Assembly: GCA_963783375.1 (NCBI GenBank)
Contig: CAWANH010000029.1
Span: forward strand, 128,001 to 192,000
Direction: 5' to 3'
DNA: 64,000 nt
Source of the DNA: Candidatus Eiseniibacteriota bacterium
GTDB lineage: Bacteria; Eisenbacteria; RBG-16-71-46; JABDJR01
Positions 33,739-61,896 of this stretch are shown piece by piece (position 1 is the stretch's first letter; the number at the start of each line of letters is the position of its first letter). The notes under the pieces were generated by a model. It ran no database searches and was not told the DNA's origin. It was given only the letters and a program-made list of their open reading frames with translations. The position numbers and the translations under genes were made by a program.

Positions 33739-33765
33739 TAACGTTCCGCCCCGGTCCGACGATAA
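33739..33765 (+). promoter_or_regulatory. sigma28-like promoter upstream of the SgmX-like TPR gene
   Basis: TAACG(TT)-N14-GACGATAA. Confidence 0.5.
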
Positions 33766-33874
33766 AGAATGAGGGCGAGCGCTCCTCCGCGAGGGTGGTG
33801 GTGTGCGCCCGCGAGCAGCGTCGATCTGTCCACCCGGCAATGGCCGCCGGAGATCGGGATAGGGGGCTTCCTCC

Positions 33875-35804
33875 TTGGATCAGAACGCCAGTATCAAGCG
33901 AAGGGTCCAGAGCCTGATCAAGAAGGGTTCCTACGCCGAGGCCGCCGCCACCTACGAACAGTTGGCGGAGGCCGGCGATATGGATCCCTACGATTATGTG
34001 GTTCTGGGGGATCTGCTTATCCGGACCGGGCGCCGGCGGGAAGCGGTGGGCCGGTACGTGGAGGCGCTCAACAGCTACGCCGAAGCCGGGTTGAATCGGA
34101 ACGCCATCGCCCTGGCCAAGAAGGTGCGGCGCCTGGCCGCGGACAAAACCGTGATCCAGCGGCGGCTCGGCGATCTGTACGCCGCCGAGAGCCTGGAGAG
34201 CGAAGCGGCCCTGCACTACCTGGAATTCCTGGAGAGAGTGGACATCGAGGCCGAAGATGCCCCCGAGGAAGTCGAGCACGTTTGCCACCGGCTCCTGGAC
34301 CTGGCCCTGCCCTCCTTCGACGTGGTGGAGCGGGTGGTGGAGGCGGGGAAGCGGGTGGACCGGGAATCCCGGCTCGCCGCGGGGGTTCTGGAACAGGCCC
34401 GGCGGGCCGCCGCCCTCGACGAACCCGAGGTGGAGAAGCGGCTCACGGCGCTGGCGCTCTCCCTGGACGCCGAGCTCGACACCACCGCTCCCCCGTCGCT
34501 TCCCGCGGCGCCCGGGCGGGAAGAGACCGAAGACGCCCCCGGACCGGAGTTCATGGACCCCGGTGCGGTCCATCTCACGCCTTCCTCCCCCGATCCGCAG
34601 CCGGAATCCCCGGCGGAGCCCGCGCAACCGGCCGGGCCGCCGGTGCTCTCCCTGGACGATTTCTCCTACGACGATCCTCATACCGTGCACCTCGAGGCCT
34701 CGCCCGGGTCGGGGAACGGCGCCGGGGCGGAGATCGAGGATTCCGAAGCCCCGTCGAACCTGGCTCCCGACCTGGAGCTGGAGTCCCCGCGGCAGGAGTA
34801 GCGAACCGATCACGGAACCCTCCCCTGGCGCTCCCGCCGCGATATCCCACGGCTTCGGCGGAGCCTCGGAGGACGAAGCGGAAGAGGAGGAGGATCCCGC
34901 CGCGCTGCGCGCACGCGCCCTGGAATTCCTGGAAAAGAACGACCCACTCCGGGCCCAGCGGGAGCTCATGCGGGCGGCCCGCGCCTACTTCCAGATCGGG
35001 CACAGCCACGACGCCGAGGAACTCTACCGGCGGGTGGTTCAGCTCGACCCCAACCATCTGGACGCCCTGCGCGGCCTGGTGGAGCTCGCCCACATCAACG
35101 GCGAGAGCGGGAAGATGGCCCACTGGGGATGCGAGCTCGGCGACGTGCTCCTGGCCCGCGAGATGTATCCCGAGGCCAAGTTCCAGTTCGAGCGGGTTCT
35201 CGCCTTCGACGCGGAGAACGTGAAGGCCCGATCCCGGGTGAACCGGCTGAACACCATCGCCGGGGTGGAGGGGTCGTCCTTCGGCGCCCTGGCCCCGGAC
35301 GCCAGCGAGGTGGCCGGCGCCCAGGTCACCGTCCGGAACGATCCCCAGAACGAGAGCCAGAGCGCCTTCGATCTGTCCCAGATCCTGGACGAGTTCCGCA
35401 GCAAGGTCGAGGAGCAGATCCCCCGGGACGACCATCAGGGCCACTACGACCTCGGCGTCTCCTACAAGGAGATGGGGCTTTTCGCCGAAGCGGCCCAGGC
35501 CTTCGAGACCGCGGCCGAGGGGGGAGACAACCCTTCCCGGTCGCTGGAGATGCTGGCGGAATGCTATCTTCTTCTGGATCGGCATTCCGAGGCGCGCGAA
35601 GTTCTCGAGCGCATTCTCCCCGAGGCCGAGGGCGAGACCGAAGCGCGCCACCGCCTCCAACTGGGCCGGGCTCTCGAAGGCATGGGTGAATGGGACAAGG
35701 CAGAAGACGCATACTTCCAGGCCCTCGAACTGAACGAGGACCTGGTGGAAGCCGTGGAGCTCCTGGAGAGCATGGAGCAGCGGCGTGAGCGGGGAGCCGC
35801 GTAG
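33875..35804 (+). CDS. TPR protein, SgmX/FimV-C-like architecture; apparent frameshift near 34785
   Basis: N-terminal TPRs (33875-34801), acidic Pro-rich linker, C-terminal TPRs with EF...VEEQI..DD..GHYDLGVSYKEMGL; the second frame has no start of its own. Confidence 0.7.
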
Positions 35805-36705: not shown

Positions 36706-39236
36706 ATGACCGAACTCGAACGGCTCACCCTGACGACCGCTTTTCTGGCCGCCGTGGTCGCGGCGGGGCTGGCCCTGTCCTGGGTCCCCCACGTGGAACT
36801 GGTCACCCTTACCGTGTTCGCCGCCGGCATCGCCCTGGGGAGCGCCCGCGGGGCGCTGGTGGGCGCGGTGGGGATGCCGCTGTACGTCTTCGCCCTGAGC
36901 GCGCTCCGGGGTTTCCCGCCCTCTCCGCTCCCCATCCTCGCCGTCCAGGCCGCCGCATTCGCCCTCCCCGGGGTGGCGGGCGGGGTGTGGCGCCGCGTCT
37001 GGCTCGTTCACCCCTCCCGGCGGCGCCTCGGCCACCTGCTGCTCCCCGCCCTGGGGTTTCTCCTGGCGCTCCTCACCCAGGCCGCCCTGAACGTGGCCTA
37101 CGCCTGGTTCCTGAGCCCGGGAGCCGCCTCACGCCTCGCGGTGTTCCTGTCCGGCATGGCCTTCGGGCTGGTGGACATGGCGGTGAACGCGGCGGTGTTC
37201 GCCGCGGCGGGGCCCCCCACCGCGGCCATCCTCCGGCGTACCGCGCGAAGCCGTGGGTGGTGGGGGAGGGCGACCGCCGCGGCCGCTCTGGCGGTTCTGG
37301 CCCTGGCCTGGGGCGCTCCGGTCCGCCTCGCCGAAGCCGCGCCGGCGGACTCCCGGGCCACTCCCGTCGATGCCTTCGCCGCCCCGGTCGACACCTCGAG
37401 CGCTCCCCTCGACACCCTGGCCGCCCCGGTCGATTCTCTCGGCGGCGTGAAAGGGGACGTGGCGCTCCCCGACACCCTGGGACTCCCCGGCCCCGAGGCG
37501 GTGGCCGAGAGCCTGGGCGTTTCCCGGACGGCGGGGGCGCCGCTCCGCCGCCTCCGCCTGCTTCCCGAGCCGGTGTGGCACGGCTTCTCCGCGCTCACCG
37601 TCTCGCCCTCCGGCGCGCCGACCCTCGAGGACGCCGACCTCTGGGACGGCGGGTCGCGGTCCTGGACCACTGCGCCCGCGGTTCCGCGGAGCCTGGACCG
37701 GTGGGGCCTGGGTTGGGGACGGGTGCGGTACAGCTACGACGGGCTTCCCCTGGCCGGACCGGTGCACGACGACGGCGAGCCGCCCGATCTGCCGTTGGCC
37801 TGGCGGGGGGCCTGGCGGGAGCGGTGGACGGCGGCGGGGACGGCGATCGATCTCTCGAGCCCCCGGCCGCTCGCCGTCGAGCCGGTGAGCCAGGTCTCCC
37901 TCACCTCGGGGAGCCTGGGGCGGCGGACCGCGGAGTTCGGGCTCTTTCGGAACCTGGGTCCGGTGAACTTCGGCGGCGATCTCCGGGACCGCCAGGAGCA
38001 GGGCTACACCCTTCTCACCCAGGGGGACCAGAGCCGGCTCTGGCTCCGGCTGGAGTCGGTCCCCGGCCGGCGACCGGACTGGACGCTGGACGTGGCCAGC
38101 GGGAAGGAGAAGGACCGGTACCTCTCCAGCGGAACCCTCATTCGCTCCTCGCGACGGATCCAGGGGAGTTTGAGCGGCCCCTTCGCGGGGGGGAGACCCG
38201 GCTCGCGCTCCAGCTCCGGCGCCGGGCCCTGGCCCTCTACTCGGGCCCCGGGGCCTTCGGCGAGGTCATATTCGACGGCTACACCTTCCAGGCGGACTGG
38301 GCGCCGCCGGGGATCGAGGGGCTCGACGCGCGACTTCGCTTCGACCGCGACCGGCGGCGAAACGTCCTGGCCGACGACCGCACCCTGGACGGGGGGAGCG
38401 CGGGGGTCTCCTGGGGGCGTGCCGGGACGCGCTGGAACCTGGGCGCCGAGGCCTCGGCCGGCGATCAGGAGCCCTACGGGTTCACCTGGAACGGGACCGC
38501 CGCCGCCGAACTCCACCACGAGAGCTGGGGGGGACGGGTCTCGGTGAGCCACGAGGAGGACTTGCCGCCCCTGGTGATCGGGGTGGACCGGCCGACCCCC
38601 GAGGCGGGGTTCGCGAGCTTCCTCGAACTGTACGAGAATGCCCCCGATCCGGAATCGCGGACCGCGATCCGGGTCGAGGGGGGGGTGAGGGGAGAGCGCG
38701 CCGGGGTGAAGCTCGGGGCGTGGGCGGGGCGGATCCGCCACTATCTCCTGGGCTCGAATCCGCTCTGGACCCCATTCACCGATTACACCCCGCTCGTCGT
38801 TCCTTCCACCTCCGCCGATGTCCTGGGGCTCTACGGCTCGGTGCGGCTGAGCGCGGGGCGGGGGATCTACGGCGAGGGCGCGGCGCGGGTGCAGAACCGG
38901 GAGGCGCGCGCGGTGCCCTACCTGCCGGCCTTCGACGCCGACGGGGCGATCCACTGGCGCCGCTACTGGTTCAAGCGCTCGCTCGACCTCGACGCCGCAG
39001 TGGGCGGCGTCCTGATCGGTCCGCGCACCAACCCCGAGGGAGAGCGCTATCCCACCACGGCCCTGGGCTACGCGAAGCTGGTGGGCCGGGTGGACAACGG
39101 GCTCCTCATCCTCATGTTCCAGAACCTGGGGGGCGCGTACATGGAGTCCGACTTCCGCTCCAGCGACACCGTGACCCCGCTTCCCATCGCCGGCCAGACC
39201 TTCGTGATCGGGCTCACCATGTTCCTGGCCCAGTAG
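36706..39236 (+). CDS. Apparent fusion of an ECF transporter S-component (CbrT-like) with an outer-membrane plug/beta-barrel protein; frameshift near 38190
   Basis: N-terminal multi-TM domain with VPHVELVTLTVF..G..LG...GALVG; internal signal-like segment; plug-like RVRYSYDGLPL; beta strands continue in the -1 frame after the G7 run at 38187-38193. Confidence 0.6.
37363..37446 (+). repeat. Four imperfect 21-bp (7-aa) repeats in a linker
   Basis: PVDAFAA PVDTSSA PLDTLAA PVDSLGG. Confidence 0.7.
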
Positions 39237-39265
39237 GGGATCGGGCCCCGGCAGTCTCGCTCGGG

Positions 39266-39274
39266 TGCTAGACT
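39266..39274 (+). promoter_or_regulatory. Extended -10 promoter for comEA
   Basis: TG-C-TAGACT about 50 bp upstream of the start. Confidence 0.4.
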
Positions 39275-39322
39275 GAACACCGCGGCCCGCCTCCCAGAGC
39301 CCCCGCCGGAAAGGGGGCTTCA

Positions 39323-39760: not shown

Positions 39761-39853
39761 GGCAGTTGCCGCCGTGGACCGGAGCCCGGGACCTCCTGTG
39801 GGTCGGTAAACCCACCCCGGCCGGTTCCTGCAAGGCGGACGGTCTTTCTCCCT

Positions 39854-39879
39854 TCAAGTTCCGGCTTCTCCGCCGATAC
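39854..39879 (+). promoter_or_regulatory. sigma28-like promoter for pilB-pilT-pilC
   Basis: TCAAG-N13-GCCGATAC. Confidence 0.6.
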
Positions 39880-39990
39880 CTACCTTGCAAAAGGCACGAC
39901 CGGGGGGAGCAATCTGCGCAGACGCTTTCCCGACCGCACCCGGTCACTTCGGGGCAGACGGATTCTCATGTCCGTCTGCGGAGGCATCGC

Positions 39991-41674
<1,684 letters not shown>

Positions 41675-41682
<8 letters not shown>

Positions 41683-42907
41683 CCCCGGCTATCCGAACTC
41701 CGGAAACCGTCCCGGCGCCCAGCGCCCTGGCCCCCCCCCCTCGCCCGCGGGGGCGCCCGCCGGTCCCGGCGCCGTCCCCGGCGCTGGCCCGTCCGCTACC
41801 GGCGGTGGACCGTCCGCTCCCGGCAAGGGCGAGACCAACATGCACGACCTCCTGCGGGAGATGATCACGAGGAAGGCCTCGGACCTTCACCTGACCGCCG
41901 GGGTTACCCCCATGTTCCGGGTGGACGGCCAGCTCATGGGCAGCAGCTACAAGGTGCTGAAGCCGGAAGCGTGCGAGCGTCTGTCCTACTCGGTGCTGAC
42001 CGAGGAGCAGCGCAAGGGGTTCGAGATGAAGCGCGAGATGGACGTATCCTTCGGGATTCCCGGCCTCTCCCGCTTCCGCGCCAACCTCTTCCTCCAGCGC
42101 GGAGTGGTCAGCATGGCCATTCGCCAGATCCCTTACAACGTGCAGACGGTGGAGCAGCTCGGTCTCCAGAAGACCATCGTGGATTTCGCCCACAAACCCA
42201 AGGGCCTGGTCCTGGTCACCGGTCCCACCGGCAGCGGCAAGTCCACCACCCTGGCCGCCCTCATCAACCTGATCAACGAGGAGCGCCACGGCCATATCAT
42301 GACCATCGAGGACCCGATCGAGTTCGTGCACCAGCACAAGAGCTGCATCGTGAACCAGCGGGAAGTTCACGCCGACACCGACAGCTTCGCCAACGCGCTC
42401 AAGTACGTCCTCCGGCAGGATCCGGACGTCATCATGTTGGGAGAAATGCGGGACCTGGAGACCATCGCCGCCGCCCTCACCATCGCCGAGACCGGCCACC
42501 TGGTCTTCGCCACCCTCCATACCAACTCCACCTTCGAGGCGGTGAACCGCGTGGTGGACGTGTTCCCTCCCTCCCAGCAGAAGCAGGTGCTGTCCCAGCT
42601 CGCCTTCGTGCTGGAGGGGGTGGTGGCCCAGCAGCTCCTGCCCCGGGCCCGCGGGGCGGGGCGGGTGTTGATCCCGGAGATCCTGGTGTGCACCCCGGCG
42701 GTGAAAGCGGTGGTTCGCGAGGGGAAGACCCATCAGATCTACACCCTCATGCAGGCGGGGAGCAAGCACGGCATGCAGACCATGAATCAGGCCCTATTCT
42801 CGGCTTACGCCAACCGCCTCATCTCCTACGAGGAGGCGATCGGCCGTAGCTTCGATCCCCAGGAGTTCGCCCAGATGACCTCGAAGAGCGGGCTCAGAGC
42901 GGCCTAG
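41675..42907 (+). CDS. pilT: Type IV pilus retraction ATPase
   Basis: ASDLHL, GPTGSGKSTTLAA, TIEDPIEF, AETGHLVFATLHTN, GMQTM; Pro/Gly-rich N-terminal extension. Confidence 0.95.
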
Positions 42908-42930
42908 GCGGCCAAGGAGAGGAGTGAACC

Positions 42931-44154
42931 GTGCCCACCTACGTATGGAAAGGTAAGACGCTCTCGGGGGAGATCCAGAGCGGGGAGATGACCCTGGGGA
43001 ACCAGGAGGAAGTTCTCTCCCAGCTTCGCCGGAAGCGCATCATCGCCACCTTCGTTCGGGAGAAGCCCAAGCAGGTCTCCTTGAGCCTCCGGCTCAAGGG
43101 ATCGAGCGGGGTGAAGACCAAGGACCTGGCCATCTTCACCCGGCAGTTCGCGACCATGATCAACGCCGGGCTGCCCCTGGTGCAGTGCCTGGACATCCTC
43201 TCCCAGCAGGTGGACAACCCGGCCTTCAAGACCGTGATCGGGAGCGTGATGCACGACGTGGAGTCGGGATCCACCCTGGCCGAGGCCATGCGCCGGCACC
43301 CGAAGGTGTTCGACAAGCTGTTCACCAACATGGTGGAAGCCGGCGAGGCGGGCGGTGTCCTGGACGACATCCTTCTCCGTCTGGCCACCTACATCGAGAA
43401 GGCGGAAGCGCTCAAGCGGAAGATCAAGAGCGCCATGACCTACCCGATGGTGGTCCTGATCGTGGCCGTCGTGGCCACGTCGTTCATGCTGCTCTTCATC
43501 ATTCCCACCTTCGCCAAGATCTTCCTGGAGTTCGGGGGCGACCTGCCCCTGCCCACCAAGATCGTGCTCGGACTGTCGGGATTCCTCCGGGGCTACTGGT
43601 ACATCCTGGTCGGCGGGATCATCGGGGCGGTGGTGGCCTACCGGCGTTACGTGGCCACGGAGGGCGGACGAAGGACCGTGGATCGTCTGAAGCTCCGCCT
43701 GCCGATCCTGGGCGACGTGCTCCGCAAGGGCGCCATCGCCCGCTTCACCCGCACCCTCGGCACCCTGATCTCTTCGGGGGTGCCCATCCTCGACGGCCTG
43801 GAGATCACCGCCCAGACCTCGGGCAACAAGATCATCGAGGAGGCGATCATGTACACCCGGGGCTCCATCCGGGAAGGCGAGACCATCGCCGCGCCCCTGA
43901 AGGAGTCGAAGGTGTTCCCGCCCATGGTGGTGCAGATGATCGGGGTGGGCGAGGAAACCGGCGCCCTGGACGAGATGCTCAACAAGATCGCCACCTTCTA
44001 CGACGACGAGGTGAATACCGCGGTCGACACCCTGACCTCGGTCATCGAACCGGTCATGATCGTGGTCATGGGGCTCATCGTCGGCGGCATGGTCGTCGCC
44101 ATGTACCTGCCGATGTTCAAGCTCGTTTCGGTGGTGGCCGGTGGAGCGAACTAG
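42931..44154 (+). CDS. pilC: Type IV pilus platform protein (GspF family)
   Basis: FTRQFATMINAGLPL, GEAGG.LD, SAMTYP, GEETGALDEML, AMYLPMF. Confidence 0.96.
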   Translation: MPTYVWKGKTLSGEIQSGEMTLGNQEEVLSQLRRKRIIATFVREKPKQVSLSLRLKGSSGVKTKDLAIFTRQFATMINAGLPLVQCLDILSQQVDNPAFKTVIGSVMHDVESGSTLAEAMRRHPKVFDKLFTNMVEAGEAGGVLDDILLRLATYIEKAEALKRKIKSAMTYPMVVLIVAVVATSFMLLFIIPTFAKIFLEFGGDLPLPTKIVLGLSGFLRGYWYILVGGIIGAVVAYRRYVATEGGRRTVDRLKLRLPILGDVLRKGAIARFTRTLGTLISSGVPILDGLEITAQTSGNKIIEEAIMYTRGSIREGETIAAPLKESKVFPPMVVQMIGVGEETGALDEMLNKIATFYDDEVNTAVDTLTSVIEPVMIVVMGLIVGGMVVAMYLPMFKLVSVVAGGAN

Positions 44155-45748
44155 GTCCCGCGTTTCTCCCGGGTACGGTGTGCCGGGCCAGCGCTGGCTG
44201 GCCCCGGCGCGCCTGGCCGCCGCCATCCTGCTCCTGGGGCTGACCCTGTTCGCGGGGGATGGCTACCGGTGGCCGGGGTTGGTCTACCTGGCCGCGGGAA
44301 TAGCGGGAGCGACCGCGCTCCTGGGGGGGTGGGTCCGTGGCGGCAGGAACGTGATCAGCCTGCTGTTCCTGGCCGATCTGGGATGGATCGGCCTGGCGGT
44401 GGTGGCCAGCGGGAGTCCCGAGGTGGGGTTCACCCTCCTCTTTCCCCTGGTGGCGTTCGGGGCGGGTCTTACCGTGGGAGGGAAACGGGCGCTGGGCCTG
44501 AGCCTTCTCGCCGGGGCCGCCCTGGTGGTTTCGGTCACCCGGCTTTCCGTGCCCCCCGCCGACCCGGCGTGGCTGGCCGTGCAGGGGCTCCTGGTCCTGG
44601 TGCTGGGGGTGGTGAGCGACCGCACCCGGGCGCTGTTGCTCTCGAGGGAGCGGGCGCTGGTCCACGCCTCCCGGGCCCTGGAGCGGATGAGGCTGGACAC
44701 CGACACCATCGTCCAGAACCTGGGAAGCGGTCTTCTGAGCCTGGATCGCGTCGGCTGTGTGGGGCACCTCAATCGGGCGGCGGAGGAGACCCTGGCGATT
44801 TCCGCGGAGAAAGTGCGGGGGAAGCGCTGTGTCGAGGCGCTTCCCGACTACCTGGCTCCGCTCCGGGATCTGGTCCTTTCCAGCCTGGCCGAGGGACGGT
44901 CCGCCCTCCGGTGCGAGATGGATCTTCTGGTGGACGGCCGCCGGGTGCCGCTCGGGGTGAGCACCACCATCCTCTACGGCGCCGAGGGCGAGACGACCGG
45001 GGTGGTGGCGCTCTTCCAGGACCTGACCGAGGTGCGCCGCCAGGAGGCCCTGGACCGCCGCCGGGACCGTCTGGCCGCGGTGGGCGAGCTGGCCGCGGGA
45101 ATCGCCCACGAGATCCGGAACAGCGTCCTTCCCCTGGGAGGATCGGTGCAGATCCTGGCCCAGGAGCTGACCCTGGATGCCGAACAGAAGAAGCTTTTCG
45201 AGGTCATCAGCCGGGAAATGGAGAACGTGGAGCGATTCGTCGGCGCGCTCCTCTCCTACACCCGGACCCAGACCCTCCACGCGAACCGGGTGGATCTCCG
45301 CGCCCTGGCCCGGGAAGCCGCGGATGAAATCCGGCTTTCCCGCCCGGACCCACCGGTGGTGGAGACCCGCGAGGGCGAGGCCTGGGCCTGGGGCGACGCC
45401 GACCAGCTTCGCCAGGCGGTACGGAACCTGGCCCTGAACGCCGCCGACGCCGCCGGGGACGCGGGGAAGGTGTTTCTTTCCAGCGGGTCGGCCGCCGATG
45501 GCCGGCCCTGGATCGAGGTGGAGGACGACGGTCCCGGCGTTCCCGCCGCCGACCGGGACAGGGTGTTTCAGCCCTTCTTCACCACCAAGCCGGGGGGGAC
45601 GGGTCTGGGCTTGGCCATAGTCGCCCGGATCACCGAGGACCACGGCGGCCAGCTCCAGCTTCTCGATTCGGCGCTGGGCGGGGCCCGTTTTCGCATGGTG
45701 CTCTCGGAACCGGCCGAAGACCCGTCGCTCCTGACGACGGCGGCCTGA
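44141..45748 (+). CDS. pilS: Membrane sensor histidine kinase with PAS domain
   Basis: Multiple TMs, AHEIRN H-box, DDGPG, PFFTTK.GGTGLGL; located between pilC and pilR; start uncertain. Confidence 0.85.
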   Translation: MERTRSRVSPGYGVPGQRWLAPARLAAAILLLGLTLFAGDGYRWPGLVYLAAGIAGATALLGGWVRGGRNVISLLFLADLGWIGLAVVASGSPEVGFTLLFPLVAFGAGLTVGGKRALGLSLLAGAALVVSVTRLSVPPADPAWLAVQGLLVLVLGVVSDRTRALLLSRERALVHASRALERMRLDTDTIVQNLGSGLLSLDRVGCVGHLNRAAEETLAISAEKVRGKRCVEALPDYLAPLRDLVLSSLAEGRSALRCEMDLLVDGRRVPLGVSTTILYGAEGETTGVVALFQDLTEVRRQEALDRRRDRLAAVGELAAGIAHEIRNSVLPLGGSVQILAQELTLDAEQKKLFEVISREMENVERFVGALLSYTRTQTLHANRVDLRALAREAADEIRLSRPDPPVVETREGEAWAWGDADQLRQAVRNLALNAADAAGDAGKVFLSSGSAADGRPWIEVEDDGPGVPAADRDRVFQPFFTTKPGGTGLGLAIVARITEDHGGQLQLLDSALGGARFRMVLSEPAEDPSLLTTAA

Positions 45749-45781
45749 GTGTTGGCTTCGACGACGAAAGGACTCTAGGAG

Positions 45782-47191
45782 ATGGCGCAAGAAAAGATCC
45801 TGGTGGTGGACGACGAACAGAGCATGATCCAGTTCCTCTCCGCCCTGCTCCGGCGCGAGGGGTACGAGGTACTCGCCGCCCGCTCCGGAGCCGAGGCGCT
45901 GGACGTCGCCCGGGAGCACGCGCCCGATGTGGTCATCACCGACATCAAGATGCCCGGTATGGACGGGTTGGCGCTCCTGGAAAGCCTCAAGCAGCAGGAC
46001 GAGAGCCTTCCGGTGATCATCATGACCGCCTACGCGTCCCAGAAGTCGGCCATCGATGCCTTGAACCTGGGGGCGTTCCAGTACATGGAGAAGCACGCCA
46101 AGAACGACGAGATCAAGCTGGCGGTGCGAAACGCCCTGGAGATGCGGAAGGTCCGTTCGGAGAACTCGTACCTCAAGCGCCAGCTCAAGAAGAGCCACGC
46201 CACCAAGGAGATCATCGGGAAGTCGGACCAGATGATGCAGGTGTTCAAGATGGTGGACAAGGTGGCCGAGACCGACTCCACCATCCTCATCTCCGGCGAA
46301 TCCGGCACCGGGAAGGAGCTGATCGCCCGGGAAATCCACTACCGGAGCCGCCGCTCCGGCGGGTCCTTCGTCTCCATCAATTGCGGGGCCCTGCCCAAGG
46401 ATCTCCTGGAGTCCAATCTCTTCGGGCACGTCAAGGGGTCCTTCACCGGTGCGGTGCGCGACCAGTTGGGGCTCTTCCAGGTGGCGGAGGGAGGCACGTT
46501 CTTCCTGGACGAGGTGGGGGAGACGCAGCCGGCCACGCAGGTGAAGCTCCTGCGCGCGCTCCAGGAGCGGGAGATCATACCGGTGGGCGGAACCAAGCCG
46601 ATCAAGATCGACGTGCGCCTGGTGGCCGCGACCAATTCCGACCTGGAGCGGGACGTCCGCGAGGGCCGGTTCCGCACCGACCTCTACTACCGTTTGAACG
46701 TGATCCCGCTCCGCCTGCCGTCGCTCCGCCAGCGGCTGGACGACATCCCGATCCTGGCCGACCACTTTCTCCGGCGGTTCCCGGGCCCCAACGGCCTGAA
46801 GCGCCTCAGCAAGCAGTGCCTGGAGGTTCTGGGCCGGTACAACTGGCCCGGGAACGTCCGTGAGCTGGAGAACGTGATCGAGCGGGCGGTGATCCTCTCC
46901 GAGTCGGACGAGATCGACGTGGAGGACCTTCCGGAGAAGGTGGTGCGTGGGGACGCCACCCGGGGGAGCCTGGTGATCGACCAGCCCGACTTCACCCTCG
47001 AGGAACTGGAACGGGAGTACATCCTCAAGGTGCTGGAGCACACCGGCTGGCAGAAGAAGCGGGCCTCGGACATCCTGGGGATCAACGCCTCCACTCTCTA
47101 CCGGAAGCTCCAGGCCTACAAGGCCCAGGGCCTGATCGCGGAAGGGGCGGATCACGAGGGAGACGACGAGATCCTGGACGCGGCCGCCTAG
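45782..47191 (+). CDS. pilR: sigma54-dependent response regulator (NtrC family)
   Basis: Receiver domain, GESGTGKE, GSFTGA, WPGNVREL, Fis HTH; directly upstream of pilA. Confidence 0.92.
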   Translation: MAQEKILVVDDEQSMIQFLSALLRREGYEVLAARSGAEALDVAREHAPDVVITDIKMPGMDGLALLESLKQQDESLPVIIMTAYASQKSAIDALNLGAFQYMEKHAKNDEIKLAVRNALEMRKVRSENSYLKRQLKKSHATKEIIGKSDQMMQVFKMVDKVAETDSTILISGESGTGKELIAREIHYRSRRSGGSFVSINCGALPKDLLESNLFGHVKGSFTGAVRDQLGLFQVAEGGTFFLDEVGETQPATQVKLLRALQEREIIPVGGTKPIKIDVRLVAATNSDLERDVREGRFRTDLYYRLNVIPLRLPSLRQRLDDIPILADHFLRRFPGPNGLKRLSKQCLEVLGRYNWPGNVRELENVIERAVILSESDEIDVEDLPEKVVRGDATRGSLVIDQPDFTLEELEREYILKVLEHTGWQKKRASDILGINASTLYRKLQAYKAQGLIAEGADHEGDDEILDAAA

Positions 47192-47256: not shown

Positions 47257-47325
47257 CATGTGAGCCGGACGCTCGCATGCACCCTGCACGATCATGCAAC
47301 CGGCATGCGCGGGATGCACGACGCA
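47255..47325. promoter_or_regulatory. Putative PilR upstream activator sites
   Basis: Cluster of TGCA/TGCG at 47255, 47278, 47285, 47295, 47306 and 47315, about 120-180 bp upstream of the sigma54 promoter. Confidence 0.4.
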
Positions 47326-47434: not shown

Positions 47435-47450
47435 TGGCACAGCGAGTGCA
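47435..47450 (+). promoter_or_regulatory. sigma54 promoter of pilA
   Basis: TGGCAC-AGCGA-GTGCA with correct GG/GC spacing; A-tract immediately upstream. Confidence 0.8.
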
Positions 47451-47479: not shown

Positions 47480-47506
47480 TCAAGTAGGTCGCTCGGAAGC
47501 CGAAAA
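47480..47506 (+). promoter_or_regulatory. sigma28-like promoter of pilA
   Basis: TCAAG-N14-GCCGAAAA. Confidence 0.6.
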
Positions 47507-47561: not shown

Positions 47562-47987
47562 ATGCTTCGGAATTCCAAGGGTTTCACCCTGATCGAGCTG
47601 ATGATCGTCGTGGTCATCATCGGGATCCTGGCGGCCATCGCCATCCCGAACTTCATCTCCATGCAGGACCGTGCCCGTGAGGGCAGCGTGAAGGCCAACA
47701 TGCACACCATCCAGCTCGCGACCGAGGACTTCGCGGTCCAGAGCAACGGCGTGTATCCGACCGCGGCCGCCGACGCCACCCCCAACGGCGACACCGTTGT
47801 GGATCTCTGCGCCAACGGCGTGTATCCGAACAACCCCTTCACCGGCGCCGCCACCGCGGTCAGCTGGGGTGCCGCCCCGGCGGCCCAGGGCGAGGTCGGG
47901 TTCAGCACCGCCACCACGACCCAGTACGTGATCCAGGGTTATGGGAAGAGCGCGCTTCTGAGCCTGCAGCTCACCAACGGTTCCTAG
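47562..47987 (+). CDS. pilA: Major type IVa pilin
   Basis: MLRNSKG|FTLIELMIVVVIIGILAAIAIPNF; AGGAGG RBS; own promoters and terminator. Confidence 0.93.
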   Translation: MLRNSKGFTLIELMIVVVIIGILAAIAIPNFISMQDRAREGSVKANMHTIQLATEDFAVQSNGVYPTAAADATPNGDTVVDLCANGVYPNNPFTGAATAVSWGAAPAAQGEVGFSTATTTQYVIQGYGKSALLSLQLTNGS

Positions 47988-48010
47988 TCCTGACCTGATC
48001 GTTCGAAGCG

Positions 48011-48045
48011 GCGGCGGGGCCCATCGGGTCCCGCCGCTTCTCTTT
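48011..48045 (+). terminator. Intrinsic terminator after pilA
   Basis: 12-bp stem GCGGCGGGGCCC/GGGTCCCGCCGC followed by TTCTCTTT. Confidence 0.75.
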
Positions 48046-48088: not shown

Positions 48089-48116
48089 TCAAGTTCCGGC
48101 TGAGATCAGCCGATAA
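48089..48116 (+). promoter_or_regulatory. sigma28-like promoter for the ABC/TPR/pilD unit
   Basis: TCAAG-N15-GCCGATAA (consensus -10). Confidence 0.7.
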
Positions 48117-48153
48117 CCCATCCGGTGACGCTCGTCTCGAAGGGGGAGGATAC

Positions 48154-51566: not shown

Positions 51567-51594
51567 TCAAGACCCTCCCCCCGGACGCCGAAGT
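51567..51594 (+). promoter_or_regulatory. sigma28-like promoter upstream of the minor pilin operon
   Basis: TCAAG-N15-GCCGAAGT. Confidence 0.5.
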
Positions 51595-51721: not shown

Positions 51722-51737
51722 TGGCACTGGTCTTGCC
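51722..51737 (+). promoter_or_regulatory. sigma54 promoter of the minor pilin operon
   Basis: TGGCAC-TGGTC-TTGC matches the consensus, about 55 bp upstream of fimT. Confidence 0.8.
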
Positions 51738-51790
51738 TGCTAAGGGGGCGGCAAACCCTGTGCGGAGATCCATGACTCCGGGAGGTCCCT

Positions 51791-52270: not shown

Positions 52271-52281
52271 GGGAGATCGTC

Positions 52282-52677: not shown

Positions 52678-52693
52678 GGAAGGAGTCATCACC

Positions 52694-54835: not shown

Positions 54836-54846
54836 GAGCGTGAAGC

Positions 54847-56124
54847 ATGCGAGGGATCGAACCGCGAAACGACCAACGTGGAAGCGCCATGGTGATCAGC
54901 CTGTTGGTGCTCCTGGTGCTCACCATGGTGGGCACCTTGTTCCTGGCTCAAACCAAGACCGAGACCCAGATCTCCGGCCATGACATGCGCTCCACCCAGG
55001 CCCTCTACAACGCCGAAGCGGGCTACGGAGAGGCCCTGGCGCGCATGAGCAACATGACCGATTCCACCAACTACATCGGCCAGGCCCAGGGCGCCTGGTC
55101 CACCGAGCCCGGCTGGGGGGCCTACGTGGTGGCGGCCAACGGTGACGCCGCCCTGGACCCCGACTACGCGGCCACCGGGACCGACGGCCTGGACAACGAC
55201 GGGGACGGCCAGGTCGACGAGGCCGGCGAACGCTACCCCGAGGTCGCGTCCAAGCAGGCCGGGAACGATGCCATCGACTACGACTGGATCAAGATCCGCT
55301 ACAAGCTCAACGCGACCAACCAGGTGGTCCTGTTCGGCGACCACGACAGCGACGTGACCACCCCGCCCCGGCTGAACCTCGTCCGGGGGGTTCCGGTCCT
55401 CGTCGTGACTTCCCACGGAGCCCAGGGGTCGGCCAACCGCACGGTCGAAGTCGATGCGGTGAAATACCCGATCGAGGCGGTCGACGCGGCCATCTACACC
55501 GAGGACGACAACTTCAAGTTCAACGGGGTGTCATTCCTGGTGAGCGGGGAGGACTGGGACCCGGACACCGACAGCCGGATCGCCGGCAATCCCGACGTGC
55601 CGGGGATCATGACCACCAAGGATCCCAACAACATCGCCGGCGCGCTCAAGGGAAACCAGCAGAACAACGTCGAAGGTTCGGGGGCCGAGCCCTCGGTGAC
55701 TGCGTCCAGCGTCGACCTCGATCTCCAGGCCATGGCCGACCAGTTCGGAGCCATGGCCGACATCACCATCGGGAGCGGCACCTACTCCAACGTGAGCTAC
55801 GGCGACTACAACGACTACCACGTCGTCCACTGCACCGGGGACATCCACGTCGCCGGCCAGATGGTGGGCGGCGGCATCCTGGTCATCGACGGCGACTTGA
55901 CCTGCACCGGGCAGATGACCTGGTACGGCATGGTGATCGTCCTCGGAGACATCACCTTCTCCGGCGGCGGCGCCGGGACCCACATCTACGGCTCGGTCCT
56001 GGTCCAGGGCGGAATCACCGACCAGACCGTGGGCGGGAACGCCGACATCAAGTACTCGAGCGCGGCCCTGGCCAAGCTGGCCATGCTCTCCCCCTACGTG
56101 GTGGCGAGCTGGCACGAGCTGTAG
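54847..56124 (+). CDS. pilX: PilX-like minor pilin
   Basis: RG|SAMVISLLVL (no Glu5), QALYNAEAG, C-terminal W.EL; internal DGLDNDGDGQVDE motif. Confidence 0.85.
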   Translation: MRGIEPRNDQRGSAMVISLLVLLVLTMVGTLFLAQTKTETQISGHDMRSTQALYNAEAGYGEALARMSNMTDSTNYIGQAQGAWSTEPGWGAYVVAANGDAALDPDYAATGTDGLDNDGDGQVDEAGERYPEVASKQAGNDAIDYDWIKIRYKLNATNQVVLFGDHDSDVTTPPRLNLVRGVPVLVVTSHGAQGSANRTVEVDAVKYPIEAVDAAIYTEDDNFKFNGVSFLVSGEDWDPDTDSRIAGNPDVPGIMTTKDPNNIAGALKGNQQNNVEGSGAEPSVTASSVDLDLQAMADQFGAMADITIGSGTYSNVSYGDYNDYHVVHCTGDIHVAGQMVGGGILVIDGDLTCTGQMTWYGMVIVLGDITFSGGGAGTHIYGSVLVQGGITDQTVGGNADIKYSSAALAKLAMLSPYVVASWHEL

Positions 56125-56201
56125 ACCGCGGCCGCAGGTACGCAGCCCGGTCCTCGGACGCGCGGCCGCTCTTCCCTCGAGGCGGTTCAACGAGACAGGA
56201 G

Positions 56202-56231
56202 GGCCCTCCCCCCGGGGAGGGCCTTTCCGTT
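56202..56231 (+). terminator. Intrinsic terminator after the minor pilin operon
   Basis: Stem GGCCCTCCC/GGGAGGGCC followed by TTTCCGTT. Confidence 0.65.
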
Positions 56232-56247
56232 CCCGGGGGGGCCCGGG

Positions 56248-56275
56248 TCAAGCCCGGCCGCGGGGCTGCCGACAC
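56248..56275 (+). promoter_or_regulatory. sigma28-like promoter for the DUF2723 gene
   Basis: TCAAG-N15-GCCGACAC. Confidence 0.55.
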
Positions 56276-56295
56276 CAGACCGGGAGGTTCATGAC

Positions 56296-57927
56296 GTGTC
56301 CCGGTCCGTGAAGCGCGCGCTCCAGGTGCTGGTTCCCGCCGCGTTCGCCCTGGCCCTCTATCTTCCCACCTGGTCCCCGGTCATCACCTGGGCCCACGCG
56401 GGGGAGGACGGCCCGGAGCTGGAGGCGGTCGGGAGAACCCTTGGCGTGGCCCATCCCTCCGGGTACCCCCTCCTGACCCTCCTGGTCCGGGCGGTCTCGA
56501 TCCTGGTCCCTCCTCCGGTCTCCGCCCTCAACGTGGTCACCCTGCTGGCGGCGATCGGGGCGGTGGTGGCGGTGGCCGCGGCGGGACGGGCCCTGGCCGC
56601 CCGGCTCCGGCCCGGGGACGGAACCCTGGCCGAGGCGACCGGTCTCCTCGGCGCCGCGCTCTTCGCGGTGTCCCTCACCTGGTGGCGGCAGTCGGTGATC
56701 GGCGAGGTCTACCCGCTCCACCTCGCCCTTGTCGCCTCGGCCCTGGCCCTGGTCTGGGCGGGGGGGACCCGCCGAAGCCTCCTCGCCGCCTGGATCCTGG
56801 GCCTGGGGCTGGCCCACCATCTCCAGACGATCCCGTTCCTGCTGGTGATCGCCGCCTACCTGGTCCTCACCCGGCGATTCAAGCCGAACCTCAGGGTGCT
56901 CGCGTGCCTGACTGCACCCTTGAGCCTCTACCTGGTGCCGTTGATTCGCGCCCGGAGCCGCCCCGCCATGGATTGGGGGGATCCGGCGACCCTTCGCAAC
57001 CTGTGGTGGTCGATTTCGGGGACCCCGTACCGCGGGAACCTCTTCGCCGAGGGCACGGGACCGGCCCTGGCCCGGTGGGCCGACGCCGCGATCAAGGGGC
57101 CGGTGGAGCAGCTGGGCTGGGGGGGCGTGGTCCTGGCTCTGGCCGGTCTGGCCGTCCTGGTTCGGAAGGCTCCGCGGGAGGCAGCGGCCCTGACGCTTCT
57201 CTACGTCGGCACCACCTTCACCGCCGCCGCCTACGCCATTCCCGATTCCGCCGCCTATCATCTGCCCGCCGTCCTCGCCCTGGCCCTGGCCGCGGGGGCG
57301 GGAGGGGGTTGGATGCTCGCCGCGGGCCTCGGCGCCGCCCGTCGCGGGGGAAGGCTGGCCCTGGTCCCGGCGGGGGCGACCCTGGGCGCCCTGGCGGCCA
57401 TCGTGGCCGCCCAGGGGGTCCGGACCGCGCCCCTGGCCGACGCCCGCGCCGACCGGTCGGGATACGAATACGCGAGGCAGTCCGCCGCGATCCTCCCTCC
57501 CGACGCCCTGGTGCTCTCCCACGGCGACGGCCGTACCTTCTCGCTCTGGTACGCGGTCACCGTGCTGGATCCCCGCCCCGATGTGGTGGTCCTCTACGAC
57601 AACCTTCTCGACTGGCCGTGGTACCGGAAGTCCCTCCGGGACCGCTACCCGGACCTCCCCCTGCCTCCGGTCGGGCTCTCCCGCCCGATTCTCCGCGGCG
57701 CGATCTTCGAGCGCTTCCTGGACGAGCGCCCGGTATTCACCACCGAGCTCGAGCCCGAGCTCCAGGATCTCTTCACGGCGGCGCCGGCGGGGCCCTTGTT
57801 CCGGGTCCGGCGGCTTTCCCGGGAGCGCGCCGGGCCGGCTATTGCAGGAGCCAGTAGTGGAACGAGGCGTAGGAGGATTCCGGGTCCCCCAGGGACCTCA
57901 TCTCGAACGAAGCCGAGTTCCCGGTGA
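56296..57927 (+). CDS. DUF2723 (TMEM260-like) GT-C membrane glycosyltransferase
   Basis: EDGPEL....TLGVAHPSGYPL, SLTWWRQSVIGEVY.L, DWGDP; many TMs. Confidence 0.82.
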   Translation: MSRSVKRALQVLVPAAFALALYLPTWSPVITWAHAGEDGPELEAVGRTLGVAHPSGYPLLTLLVRAVSILVPPPVSALNVVTLLAAIGAVVAVAAAGRALAARLRPGDGTLAEATGLLGAALFAVSLTWWRQSVIGEVYPLHLALVASALALVWAGGTRRSLLAAWILGLGLAHHLQTIPFLLVIAAYLVLTRRFKPNLRVLACLTAPLSLYLVPLIRARSRPAMDWGDPATLRNLWWSISGTPYRGNLFAEGTGPALARWADAAIKGPVEQLGWGGVVLALAGLAVLVRKAPREAAALTLLYVGTTFTAAAYAIPDSAAYHLPAVLALALAAGAGGGWMLAAGLGAARRGGRLALVPAGATLGALAAIVAAQGVRTAPLADARADRSGYEYARQSAAILPPDALVLSHGDGRTFSLWYAVTVLDPRPDVVVLYDNLLDWPWYRKSLRDRYPDLPLPPVGLSRPILRGAIFERFLDERPVFTTELEPELQDLFTAAPAGPLFRVRRLSRERAGPAIAGASSGTRRRRIPGPPGTSSRTKPSSR

Positions 57928-59917
57928 ACACCGAGTCGGGGAGCTGGAACATGGCCTCGGTCCACACCTGCGGGGCGCGGGGGATCGTCCAGACGCCCTG
58001 ATCCATCCCGTTCACCCGAACGCCGATCCGGAAGTCGCGGAAGGACTCCGTGCGCAGGATCAACACCCCCGGCCGGTGGGGAACCGCGCGCAGGATGAAC
58101 CGCTCCCCGCGCTCGGGTTGACGGCCGCCGTCGATCACCGTGACCCGCTCGTCGCCGGCGAGGGGAAACTCGCGCAGGGTGTCCCGCCAGGTGTCGAAGG
58201 CCCGGTAGTCGTGGGCCTCTTCGCTCTCCAGGTCCGCCGGATCGACGTCGTCGGATACCCGGAACCCCCACGTGCTCACCAGCTCGCTCTGCTCCAGGAG
58301 CTGGTCGCTCCGATCGGCGGCGCTCCACTCCGCCCGGTATAGCCCCATGGTCTCCGCCCCGCTGATGGTGTTGTTGAGGAGGGTGAAGTGCGTGAGGCGC
58401 GTTCCCAGGAGGCTGGTGTGGCGGATATAGGGGAACCAGGTGGGGAAGACCGCGAAGTAGTCGGGGCGCGCCGCTTCGGGGAGGTCGCTCAACCACTCGA
58501 AGAGCGAGGCCTGTCCGGCGCGGCCGGCCAGCGCCGAGCCGTTGGTGACCAGGCCCACCAGGTCCACCACCCGCCGCTTCCCGTAGTAGGCGATGGCCCC
58601 CGCGTCGTTGATCCCCACCACCGCGTCGGCGGGAAGGTTGGCGTCGATCCACCGTCCCATCGCCACCTGCTGATCGTGGATGTTCCCCGCGTTCAGGGCG
58701 GTGAGCTGGACGTAACGGTGGAGGCCGGGAAGGAGCAGGAGCGCGATCAGCGCCGGGGGAAGGATCCTGAGCCCGGTCGGGATCCGGCGGGGAACGAGGC
58801 GCCACCACCCCGCGGTCACCAGCAGGAGAAAGAGCGGCAGGTAGGGAATCTGGTAGCGGTGGTGATGGGAGTTGAAGCCGGCGGGGATGAGCCCGGCGAG
58901 GAGGCCGGCCATGAGCACCAGCACCAGGACCCGTCCGGCGAGGCCTCGGCGCCGGGCGAAGAGCCCGAAGATCACCCCGGCCGCGGCCCCCGCGATCAGG
59001 AGCCCCTTGAGCACCCAGGCCGTCCCGAATCGGAAGGCGCCGGAGCCGAAATCGGTGAAGAGCGGCATCACGATCTGCCCGAACACCCAGGGGAGGCGCC
59101 GGAAGATGGCGAGGCGCACGTCGGGCCGCTGCTCGCTCCACACCGCCTTCGCGGCCAGGGTATTGGAGCCCGCATGCCCGAGGGCGGCCAGGTCCACCCC
59201 GAAGGTGATGGCCGCGGCCAGGGTGGGGGCGAGGATCAGCGCCCACCGGGCGCGGGCGGAGTTCGGGGCGCTTCGGGCCAGGGCCACCGCCACCGCGATC
59301 ACCCCGGCGATGAGCATGCCCTCGGGGCGGGCGAGGCCGGTGAAGAGGAGCCAGGCGAAGAGCGCGGCCAGGCGGCGCCCACCGCTGCGGGGGTCCGGGG
59401 CGTCCTGGTACCAGGGAACCGCGGCCACCGCCCCGGCCAGGGCCAGGCCGTAGAGCGCGATGTCCATGCCGCTCACCGCACCCCACAGGACGTGGCCGGA
59501 AACGAGGGTCAGGAGTCCGGCGGCGAGGCCCGCGCCCCGTCCCAGCCGGAGGTCCGCCCAGCGGTCGACGGCGAGGGCGGTCAGGGCCCAGCAGAGGACC
59601 CCCAGGCCCCAGGCCGCCCAGACCAGGGCCTCCCGGTCCAGGATCCGGGCCCAGGGGGCCAGGAGGAAGGGATAGAGCAGGCTGGTGGCCCCCCGGGTGG
59701 GGGGGGCTCCCGGCTGGTACTCGAAGGGGTGCCCCGCCGCCGCCGCGCGGGCGTACTGGAGGTAGATGTAGGTGTCGTCCAGGGGGGGGACCAGCTCCCC
59801 GCCGCAGGCCCCACGGGTCTCCCGGACGGCCAGGAGCCCCAGAATCAGGGCCAGGGCGAGATAGCCCAGGGCATGCAGGGTGCAGGTCCGACGCGCGCTT
59901 TTTCCTAAAGCTTCCAT
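57839..59917 (-). CDS. GT-C type polytopic membrane glycosyltransferase
   Basis: PLDDTYIY.QYAR...G, GATSLLY, SGMD, LARPEG, DAGAIAYY..R.VVDLVGL motifs. Confidence 0.78.
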   Translation of the reverse strand: MEALGKSARRTCTLHALGYLALALILGLLAVRETRGACGGELVPPLDDTYIYLQYARAAAAGHPFEYQPGAPPTRGATSLLYPFLLAPWARILDREALVWAAWGLGVLCWALTALAVDRWADLRLGRGAGLAAGLLTLVSGHVLWGAVSGMDIALYGLALAGAVAAVPWYQDAPDPRSGGRRLAALFAWLLFTGLARPEGMLIAGVIAVAVALARSAPNSARARWALILAPTLAAAITFGVDLAALGHAGSNTLAAKAVWSEQRPDVRLAIFRRLPWVFGQIVMPLFTDFGSGAFRFGTAWVLKGLLIAGAAAGVIFGLFARRRGLAGRVLVLVLMAGLLAGLIPAGFNSHHHRYQIPYLPLFLLLVTAGWWRLVPRRIPTGLRILPPALIALLLLPGLHRYVQLTALNAGNIHDQQVAMGRWIDANLPADAVVGINDAGAIAYYGKRRVVDLVGLVTNGSALAGRAGQASLFEWLSDLPEAARPDYFAVFPTWFPYIRHTSLLGTRLTHFTLLNNTISGAETMGLYRAEWSAADRSDQLLEQSELVSTWGFRVSDDVDPADLESEEAHDYRAFDTWRDTLREFPLAGDERVTVIDGGRQPERGERFILRAVPHRPGVLILRTESFRDFRIGVRVNGMDQGVWTIPRAPQVWTEAMFQLPDSVFTGNSASFEMRSLGDPESSYASFHYWLLQ

Positions 59918-60093
59918 ACCTCAATCCGATTGTTCAGAGCAGAACCCTGGAGAGGGGACTCGGAACCGCGGGGCGTTCTTCCCGGCTGCCATGCAGGTTG
60001 CACGGGACGTCGGCGCCCGGCCCGATCCGATGAGATCACCACCGGCCGGCTCGTGGCCGGAGGCGGTAAGGATCAGGGGCCACGGGGAACCGG

Positions 60094-60121
60094 TCAAGGA
60101 TCCAGGCCGGATCGACGATAA
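60094..60121 (+). promoter_or_regulatory. sigma28-like promoter for pilMNOPQ
   Basis: TCAAG-N15-GACGATAA. Confidence 0.6.
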
Positions 60122-61893: not shown

Positions 61894-61896
61894 GCC

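Follow-up and report, generated by a model that had tools for sequence, protein, structure and literature searches.

Sigma-28-type promoters in the type IVa pilus locus of a Candidatus Eiseniibacteriota bacterium: a putative middle tier of a cascade with sigma-54

What reads a bipartite motif that recurs upstream of the transcription units of a type IV pilus, and how far does its control extend? The question is raised by a 64,000-nucleotide (nt) stretch of DNA from a Candidatus Eiseniibacteriota bacterium (contig CAWANH010000029.1 of the assembly GCA_963783375.1, positions 128,001 to 192,000 of the forward strand), referred to below as the window; the phylum, Eisenbacteria, lies near the FCB (Fibrobacterota-Chlorobiota-Bacteroidota) group. 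According to the original prediction, a flagellar-class sigma factor, sigma-28, acts in this organism as the master switch for the pilus machine, pilin, glycosylation, and polarity genes. As judged from sequence, the sigma-28 pilus regulon is real and has a cognate sigma factor in the genome, but the master role is not supported, as sigma-54 boxes are found at pilA, the minor pilins, and fliA. With a probability of roughly 60%, the sigma-28 motifs before most pilus operons are read by the ancestral flagellar sigma factor FliA as the middle tier of a cascade for pili and surface motility. The material consists of motifs, their enrichment and conservation, gene content, and synteny, from which we infer the reading polymerase, the operon extents, and the direction of regulation.

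Sigma-28-type sites in the pilus locus and across the genome

The seven motifs of the original prediction are all in place, each on the plus strand, in intergenic DNA, and with the spacer claimed for it. They were scored with a weight matrix trained on 12 intergenic sites, all outside the window; these were chosen by a pattern taken from the original prediction, so the test is only partly independent. For the comparison with relatives (genomes G001 onward; G001 and G003 are congeners, and G004, G006, and G007 are members of the same family), pil loci were fetched, their upstream regions were aligned, and at pilB and the minor pilins scores of at least 9 bits were counted. The seven motifs and two neighboring signals are as follows.

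33739..33765, plus strand: predicted sigma-28-type promoter TAACG-N14-GACGATAA of a TPR (weakly SgmX-like) gene; 12.0 bits; both boxes in 3/3 aligned family members, all lacking FlhA
39854..39879, plus strand: predicted sigma-28-type promoter of pilB; 24.0 bits; at least 9 bits in 6/6 family members
47480..47506, plus strand: predicted sigma-28-type promoter of pilA, in tandem with a sigma-54 box and 3' of it; 18.2 bits; 3/4 family members, 1/24 outside the family
48089..48116, plus strand: predicted sigma-28-type promoter of the ABC transporter/pilD unit; 25.4 bits; 4/4 family members and G008
51567..51594, plus strand: minor-pilin site of the original prediction; 15.1 bits; not conserved in G001, G003, and G004, 0/9 relatives with at least 9 bits
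56248..56275, plus strand: predicted sigma-28-type promoter of the DUF2723 gene; 13.1 bits; 2/2 congeners (24.8 and 18.7 bits), 0/7 outside the family
59906..59932, plus strand: sigma-28-type site TAAAG-N14-TCCGATTG; 10.4 bits; aligned in 8/8 order-level relatives
60069..60097, minus strand: sigma-70-like promoter TTGACC-N17-GATCCT, directed toward the divergent gene 57839-59917; the TCAAG at 60094 is the reverse complement of its -35 box
60094..60121, plus strand: pilM site of the original prediction; 14.2 bits; perfect -10 box only here and in the nearest relative

Five of the seven sites, those of the TPR gene, pilB, pilA, the ABC/pilD unit, and the DUF2723 gene, are conserved: family members keep both boxes around spacers that have diverged, and the sites persist in relatives without FlhA or flagellin. 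The two others are not. Site 51567 is probably non-functional or strain-specific. At site 60094, the TCAAG half is kept in 6 of 8 relatives and the sigma-28 -10 half in 1 of 8, and the site is possibly a recent second promoter; a better candidate for pilM would be the site at 59906, which lies ∼320 nt before the gene and overlaps the first codons of the divergent one. Outside the family, pilB is preceded by a site of at least 9 bits in 8 of 26 other members of the class (compared to 0.8 in shuffled sequences) and pilM by a sigma-28 site in 8 of 30 cases (compared to 0.95). The ABC/pilD site is also kept in G008, whose only sigma-28 gene sits in a flagellar operon. Candidate sites upstream of pilT in relatives (8/25) mostly resemble a coding stretch at the 3' end of pilB, with only those in G022, G028, and G039 looking intergenic, and pilT was left out of the target count.

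The sites combine -35 boxes of the form T(A/C)AA with -10 boxes like GCCGATAA, at a fixed spacing and facing genes. The -10 box is identical to the sigma-28 consensus GCCGATAA in the excerpted text of PMC8325347, and the -35 box fits the T(A/C)AA/CTCA in that of PMC12871210. Throughout the genome (4.73 Mb, 97% complete, 14.6% of it intergenic), the strict pattern has 17 intergenic matches, 16 of which face a gene, versus 3 coding ones, and its spacer length peaks at 14 nt (9 matches) and 15 nt (12 matches). Scores of at least 14 bits are reached in 42 of 2,153 upstream regions, the training sites being among the 42; dinucleotide shuffles give 4.0 such regions, and wrong spacers give 4. In 1,070 tandem intergenic regions, there are 22 such sites in the sense and 1 in the antisense orientation. 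Tandem regions were used because a first antisense control (34 matches of at least 12 bits) was inflated by divergent promoters. The small contigs C9, C13, C14, C16, and C27 were left out of the upstream-region counts; these contigs repeat stretches of large ones and are probably strain haplotypes. The entire set comprises ∼40 to 50 intergenic, sense-oriented sites with spacers of 14 to 15 nt. Box match, spacing, orientation bias, and conservation all agree with the claim that these are sigma-28-type promoters, and the motif is enriched over shuffles, wrong spacers, and the antisense strand. Its claimed absence before dnaE, porU, ligA, and hutU was likewise seen, as no intergenic plus-strand site in positions 1-33000 reaches 8 bits. 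An 18-nt spacer between the same two boxes occurs 6 times in the genome, 4 times in intergenic DNA.

The locus itself is a type IVa pilus cluster that extends from pilB, pilT, and pilC through a histidine kinase and a sigma-54-dependent regulator to pilA, and then through an ABC pair, pilD, four pilin-like genes, and a DUF2723 gene to pilMNOP. The earlier labels of pilB, pilT, pilC, pilA, pilD, the minor pilins, pilM/N/O/P, and DUF2723 (PF11028) could be confirmed; only "SgmX-like" is weak, its sole basis being a 46-bit TPR match versus a cut-off of 1800. Gene calls were made with a dicodon model, and the names PilS and PilR are presumed from the position of the two genes beside pilA.

39991..44154, plus strand: pilB, pilT, pilC (TIGR02538 and TIGR01420 above cut-off; PilC with 546 bits to NF052606, cut-off 700)
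44180..47191, plus strand: PilS-like histidine kinase (AtoS-like) and PilR-like sigma-54-dependent response regulator (NtrC-family matches)
47562..47987, plus strand: major pilin pilA (N-methyl motif, PilA matches; near-identical metatranscriptome contigs)
48010..48038, plus strand: terminator-like hairpin 3' of pilA
48154-51441, plus strand: ABC transporter/pilD unit
51791-56124, plus strand: minor-pilin operon
56296-57927, plus strand: DUF2723/TMEM260-like O-mannosyltransferase gene (PF11028)
60226..63022, plus strand: pilM (frameshift near 60953), pilN, pilO, pilP

The stretch from pilB to pilR includes a 157-nt gap before pilT. No terminator was called between pilB and pilR, and the site at 39854 likely drives the entire pilB-pilT-pilC-pilS-pilR unit. 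A sigma-70 scan of 39000-58900 returned 0 sites. Frameshifts that are absent in relatives split pilM (∼60953), the TPR gene (∼34720-34905), and the gene at 36706-39236 (∼38190); they may be assembly indels or recent pseudogenes. Elsewhere in the window (8728-23739) there is a type IX secretion-like set, comprising a PorU-like sortase, an M6-like protease, and a SprA/Sov-like fragment, all below cut-off. A second pilus/type II secretion-like cluster (contig C28, 201061-212116) encodes PilB, PilC, a pilin, PilM-like and PilT-like proteins, and a secretin; no high-scoring sigma-28 site of the ranked list falls in it.

Two sigma-28 proteins and the probable flagellar ancestry of copy A

If the motifs are sigma-28 promoters, which sigma factor reads them? 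Two proteins encoded in this genome exceed the cut-off of the FliA/WhiG model TIGR02479 (189.6 bits), and the genome contains a flagellar cluster with flhA and flagellin. Copy A (C28, 1757976-1758749; 255.7 bits) has 257 amino acids and the Pfam regions r2, r3, and r4, which is the group-3 architecture; its best PDB matches are WhiG (6pfv, E value 5e-54) and FliA (6pmi), and regions 2.4 and 4.2 are conserved. The sigma factor's nearest named relatives carry the label Candidatus Eisenbacteria. Copy A follows an flhG-like ATPase gene and the genes of a PAS kinase/NtrC-family pair, and next to it on the 3' side is a GAF-GGDEF gene without the catalytic motif; a GAF-GGDEF gene lies 3' of sigma-28 in 33 of 34 loci. 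Within the 3' end of the GAF-GGDEF gene (C28, 1760087), there is a sigma-28 site that faces a hybrid receiver-kinase gene and is conserved in all order-level relatives examined. Copy B (C28, 1941359-1942231; 226.5 bits) belongs to the compact flagellar cluster, together with flhA, flagellin, and a FlgM-like gene.

The canonical flagellar position of fliA is not seen in this genome, where only flhG lies beside copy A, but it is seen in G008, G015, G020, and G028, in which the orthologue of copy A follows flhB-flhA(-flhF)(-flhG). In a tree of 40 of the 45 above-cut-off matches in relatives (which omits those of G012, G027, G032, and G040 as well as the second G005 copy), copy A groups with the G008 protein (support 100/100) and seven B copies form a clade of their own (92/95). 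Matrix sites of at least 7.8 bits (antisense maximum, 6.2) precede 13 of 14 flagellin genes of the ancestral type in relatives; this genome's own flagellin, which belongs to the copy B cluster, is preceded by a 10.3-bit site. Both G008 and G028 have sites before the ABC/pilD unit and an MglA-like gene as well. Because of the operon position of its orthologues, the tree, the flagellin sites, and the pil sites of G008 and G028, copy A is taken to be the ancestral flagellar FliA, which likely served both the flagellum and the pili in flagellated ancestors. Remnants of fliN-like and fliO-like genes precede flhG-fliA in G016 (3537-4189 of that locus), in a family without flagellin (0/26).

All 27 of the 40 relatives without FlhA have a sigma-28 above cut-off, and across the phylum it is found in 121 of 125 genomes and the flagellin domain in 50 of 125; 73 of the 75 flagellin-less genomes keep sigma-28, in a count in which kin are not independent and genomes are incomplete. 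Four relatives (G001, G003, G004, and G006) have a single sigma-28, copy A, with neither FlhA nor flagellin, and keep the pil sites; their strict sites number 16, 14, 8, and 13, respectively, versus 1, 4, 4, and 6 with the wrong spacer. Since these flagellum-less relatives with copy A alone keep both the sites and the motif excess, the comparison suggests that the pil sites are maintained by copy A.

The regulon of ∼40 to 50 sites is not pilus-specific. A scan of 69 proteins from the top targets and their operons identified two diguanylate cyclases with intact GG[D/E]EF motifs, an HD_5 protein and HDOD proteins, an MshEN-bearing PilB/GspE paralogue, a PilT paralogue preceded by a stand-alone MshEN gene, and an FHA-kinase-PilT-like unit, as well as bactofilin, several kinases, a GalE-like epimerase, polysaccharide export, and trehalose genes. 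A further target is a small-GTPase gene with weak Pfam matches, which we take to be MglA-like. Orthologues in relatives share several of these sites (30 loci were examined), and the combination of cyclic di-GMP (c-di-GMP) enzymes with pil genes is that of the WhiG2-RsiG switch. Sigma-28 might act as a global switch of life stages, a role proposed for FliA in Bdellovibrio; pili would then be only one of its outputs, and it would have been retained for the c-di-GMP, kinase, and envelope targets: only ∼7 of the ∼40 to 55 sites lie in the pil locus, the remainder preceding genes for GGDEF, HD, HDOD, kinase, epimerase, export, and trehalose functions, and the sigma factor is near-universal though the pil sites are patchy outside the family, so that pili alone may not explain its retention across the phylum. 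We nevertheless consider this unlikely, since nowhere else do the sites cluster nearly as densely as in the pil locus, the outlying targets themselves include the pilus-related MshEN, PilB/PilT paralogues, and MglA-like GTPase, and the pilB and pilM sites outside the family exceed shuffles about tenfold.

Another arrangement would have copy B read the pilus promoters of this genome chiefly or on a par with copy A, and the FlgM-like protein of its cluster would tie pili to flagellar assembly. Copy B passes the same model and shares recognition regions with copy A, its cluster has promoters of the same type before the flgM-like gene (22.4 bits), flagellin, a second gene with a flagellin domain, and motor genes, and the only FlgM-like gene found in the genome lies there. 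Yet G001, G003, G004, G006, and G007, which lack both copy B and FlhA, have the same pil sites; because congeners and family members without it keep them, copy B is not what maintains these sites, and a leading or equal role for it in reading them seems quite improbable. The cluster (C28, 1918155-1952728) is a compact second flagellar system with its own sigma-28 clade, the FlgM-like gene, a short flagellin, and motor genes, and it occurs patchily in the phylum; the short flagellin adjoins what we presume to be flbT/flaF-like genes.

Of the anti-sigma factors looked for, FlgM and RsiG, only the FlgM-like gene of the copy B cluster was detected, with a custom profile (the Pfam FlgM model missed it); RsiG gave no PF22802 match in the 97%-complete genome, with no control genome matching either. 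No FlgM-like genes were found in G001, G003, G004, G006, and G008, in a search that lacked a positive control. Pfam mostly misses the divergent FlgM-like genes that lie close to the sigma-28 locus in flagellum-less members of other families (loci L198, L100, L106, L107, L082, L111, and L097), and the one in G022 is followed by a gene that we assume from its motif to be PilZ-like.

Sigma-54 boxes and a proposed tiered cascade

Where, then, does sigma-28 stand in the control of the pilus? Two sigma-54 boxes, that of pilA absent from the original prediction, and a recurrent repeat element add to the regulatory signals of the locus.

39886..39896, plus strand: TGCA-N3-GGCA box at the predicted pilB start, a putative regulator site; 6/6 family members in the alignment
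47278..47305, plus strand: TGCA-N3-[TG]GCA repeats, a putative enhancer for the sigma-54 promoter of pilA; similar repeats in G001, G003, and G004
47435..47450, plus strand: sigma-54 -24/-12 box of pilA; 20/28 relatives, 1 antisense
51722..51737, plus strand: sigma-54 box of the minor-pilin operon; 7/9 relatives, 0 antisense

The genome encodes rpoN, a -24/-12 box precedes pilA, and a sigma-54 activator is encoded next to it, which is the configuration of sigma-54 pilin control by PilSR. The major pilin gene thus has predicted tandem promoters, sigma-54 at 47435 and sigma-28 at 47480, and at both pilA and the minor pilins the sigma-54 boxes are conserved more broadly than the sigma-28 sites. 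The family-conserved TGCA-N3-[TG]GCA box recurs at 39886-39916, 47278-47305, and, before pilM, 59992-60002; it may be where PilR binds to activate pilA and perhaps to repress pilB. A riboswitch in the conserved pilB leader was considered and rejected, as there is no Rfam match in 33000-62000 and the middle of the conserved element varies without a common hairpin; we interpret the element as a site in the DNA. A small share of the pilA region occurs in eleven metatranscriptome runs, 8 of which were analyzed as assembled contigs. Among the near-identical RNA contigs over pilA, one (1 run) starts at 47512, the predicted sigma-28 start, three (3 runs) start at 47477-47479, upstream of it, and one further contig starts at 47527, a weak hint that both promoters are used. 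The other promoters and 47124-47407 have no near-identical cover, which is not evidence of absent transcription. Sigma-54 may also act above sigma-28: in 25 of 34 loci, such a box precedes the sigma-28 gene (0 antisense; regions of up to 3.4 kb), and one lies before the copy A operon here (C28, 1756827).

These elements suggest a cascade of three steps. The PAS kinase and NtrC-family regulator encoded beside fliA would, with sigma-54, switch on flhG-fliA. FliA would then activate the TPR gene, pilB-pilT-pilC-pilS-pilR, ABC/pilD, the DUF2723 glycosyltransferase gene, and pilMNOP(Q), together with ∼35 to 45 further units (diguanylate cyclases, HD and HDOD proteins, MshEN/PilB/PilT paralogues, the MglA-like GTPase, bactofilin, sensor kinases, and polysaccharide export); pilSR would be covered if pilB-pilR is a single unit. 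Finally, PilR with sigma-54 would drive pilA and the minor pilins, and in the own family a direct FliA promoter on pilA would close a feed-forward loop. FliA was likely kept after flagellar loss for its non-flagellar targets.

Several points weigh against this cascade. Outside the family the pil sites are patchy (pilB, 8/26; pilM, 8/30; pilA, 1/24; ABC, 1/19; DUF2723, 0/7), and 11 of 36 pilM genes are instead preceded by a sigma-54 box; since the 59906 site lies partly over codons, coding constraint may explain part of its conservation, and pilM and two further genes of the window are frameshifted in the assembly. The search before fliA extended up to 3.4 kb, and some of the sigma-54 matches may not be promoters. 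The sigma tree carries long-branch warnings, and copy B, with similar recognition regions and similar promoters in its cluster, could read the pil sites too. The RNA evidence, a weak hint at most, consists of assembled contigs (4 informative ones, from 8 runs), which cannot show starts and come with no DNA-run control, and the contig ends at 47477-47479 lie 16 to 18 nt past the predicted sigma-54 start (47461).

A broader form of the cascade, which we put forward tentatively as possible but doubtful, would make sigma-28 from the start a shared controller of the flagellum, type IVa pili, and polarity across the phylum that outlived the flagellum many times on that account; it would include the feed-forward loop on pilA in the own family, and the only FlgM, that of the second flagellar cluster, could make pilus expression wait on flagellar assembly.

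The single master switch of the original prediction, sigma-28 in command of machine, pilin, minor pilin, glycosylation, and polarity genes alike, draws on the correctly oriented motifs before nearly every unit, and co-transcription of pilSR from the pilB promoter would even give sigma-28 indirect control of the sigma-54 pilin promoters. It is undercut by the comparison of the two kinds of element: at pilA, 20 of 28 relatives have the sigma-54 box, versus a sigma-28 site in 3 of 4 members of the own family and 1 of 24 genomes outside it, and at the minor pilins, where site 51567 is not conserved, the counts are 7 of 9 versus 0 of 9. Moreover, the three RNA contigs reach upstream of the sigma-28 start of pilA, the sigma-28 operon has a sigma-54 box of its own, the regulon extends to ∼40 to 50 sites, and the genome's flagellum has its own sigma-28; a single master is therefore very unlikely. 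Least credible of all is that the motif belongs to another sigma factor or regulator or is a chance or strand artifact (TCAA being the reverse complement of the housekeeping -35 TTGA), which fits site 60094, some matrix matches in coding DNA such as the pilB 3' end in relatives, and the 21 sigma-70-family matches in the genome, but not the conservation of both boxes around a diverged 13- to 15-nt spacer, the 22 sense sites versus 1 antisense, the -10 box equal to the published consensus GCCGATAA (PMC8325347, in its excerpted text), or the flagellin promoters marked by the same matrix.

Comparison with known systems

The principle that sigma-28 can run pili is already published (Rubrobacter, Actinoplanes, and the Tad pili of Bdellovibrio); what is new is the lineage, how broadly sigma-28 is retained, and its interlock with sigma-54 and PilSR. 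The locus illustrates how, among Gram-negative bacteria, type IVa pili can come to share a tier of flagellar regulation and later have it to themselves. Stages in between can still be seen: FliA within a flagellar operon along with pil sites (G008 and G028), FliA beside the fliN/fliO remnants (G016), FliA with flhG only, and, in this genome, FliA alongside a second flagellar system. The prediction that follows is of surface motility controlled by c-di-GMP and an MglA-like protein, in a phylum for which the literature found names no cultured member, and the locus supplies exact predicted promoters that are testable in Escherichia coli. A search of the open-access literature found no report of this regulon in Eisenbacteria; further pil examples may be listed in the supplementary target tables of PMC12871210 and PMC3627812.

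A cascade of alternative sigma factors that splits pilus control into tiers reportedly operates in Nostoc, where SigJ, SigC, and SigF are said to govern hormogonia and pili; it is said to differ in its sigma subfamilies and promoter sequence and to have neither flagellar ancestry nor a sigma-54 tier. Control of pilA by PilS/PilR and sigma-54 is established in Pseudomonas, Myxococcus, and Geobacter. As in those systems, a kinase and an NtrC-family regulator are encoded directly upstream of a pilA with a -24/-12 box; unlike them, a sigma-28-type promoter lies here between the sigma-54 box and pilA, and pilSR itself is apparently downstream of a sigma-28 promoter. PilR of Myxococcus is also mentioned in the excerpted text of PMC8325347.

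The closest parallel is WhiG of Actinomycetota. According to the excerpts of PMC8325347, WhiG of Rubrobacter radiotolerans drives type IV pilus genes and those of diguanylate cyclases and phosphodiesterases from mapped starts, and those of PMC12871210 predict WhiG regulons with pil and c-di-GMP genes in further actinobacterial families. Common to both lineages are a sigma-28-family factor with TAAA/TCAA...GCCGATAA promoters in the pil cluster and before c-di-GMP enzymes, as well as two sigma-28 clades, one of them tied to a flagellar cluster, whose regulons are inseparable by motif (PMC8325347 and PMC12871210, excerpted). Unlike the WhiG systems, the present one has a Gram-negative type IVa machine with PilSR and PilMNOP and no RsiG was found in it (in a search without a positive control), the sigma-28 tier has sigma-54 boxes above it, at fliA, and alongside it, at pilA and the minor pilins, and the pilus-linked copy appears to be the ancestral flagellar FliA that remained once the flagellum was lost.

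Bdellovibrio bacteriovorus FliA (Bd3318) is described in the excerpts of PMC3627812 and PMC5430801 as a global regulator with an attack-phase regulon. There, too, FliA of a Gram-negative bacterium reaches far beyond flagellar genes, and a Tad/flp promoter was FliA-responsive in an E. coli reporter; in those excerpts, however, the target is a Tad (type IVb) pilus, pilA is described as not FliA-regulated, and the organism is flagellated and has one FliA (PMC3627812 and PMC5430801), whereas here the type IVa machine is targeted and most relatives have no flagellum. Non-flagellated Legionella, finally, keep FliA, FleN, FleS/FleR, and FlgM (PMC5655016, excerpted), so that in both groups FliA, an FlhG/FleN-like ATPase, and an adjacent kinase/sigma-54 regulator pair have outlasted the structural genes. 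The excerpted text of PMC5655016 names no pilus regulon for the retained FliA of Legionella; in Eisenbacteria, by contrast, sigma-28 is retained in 73 of the 75 flagellin-less genomes, and its predicted pil promoters are identifiable.

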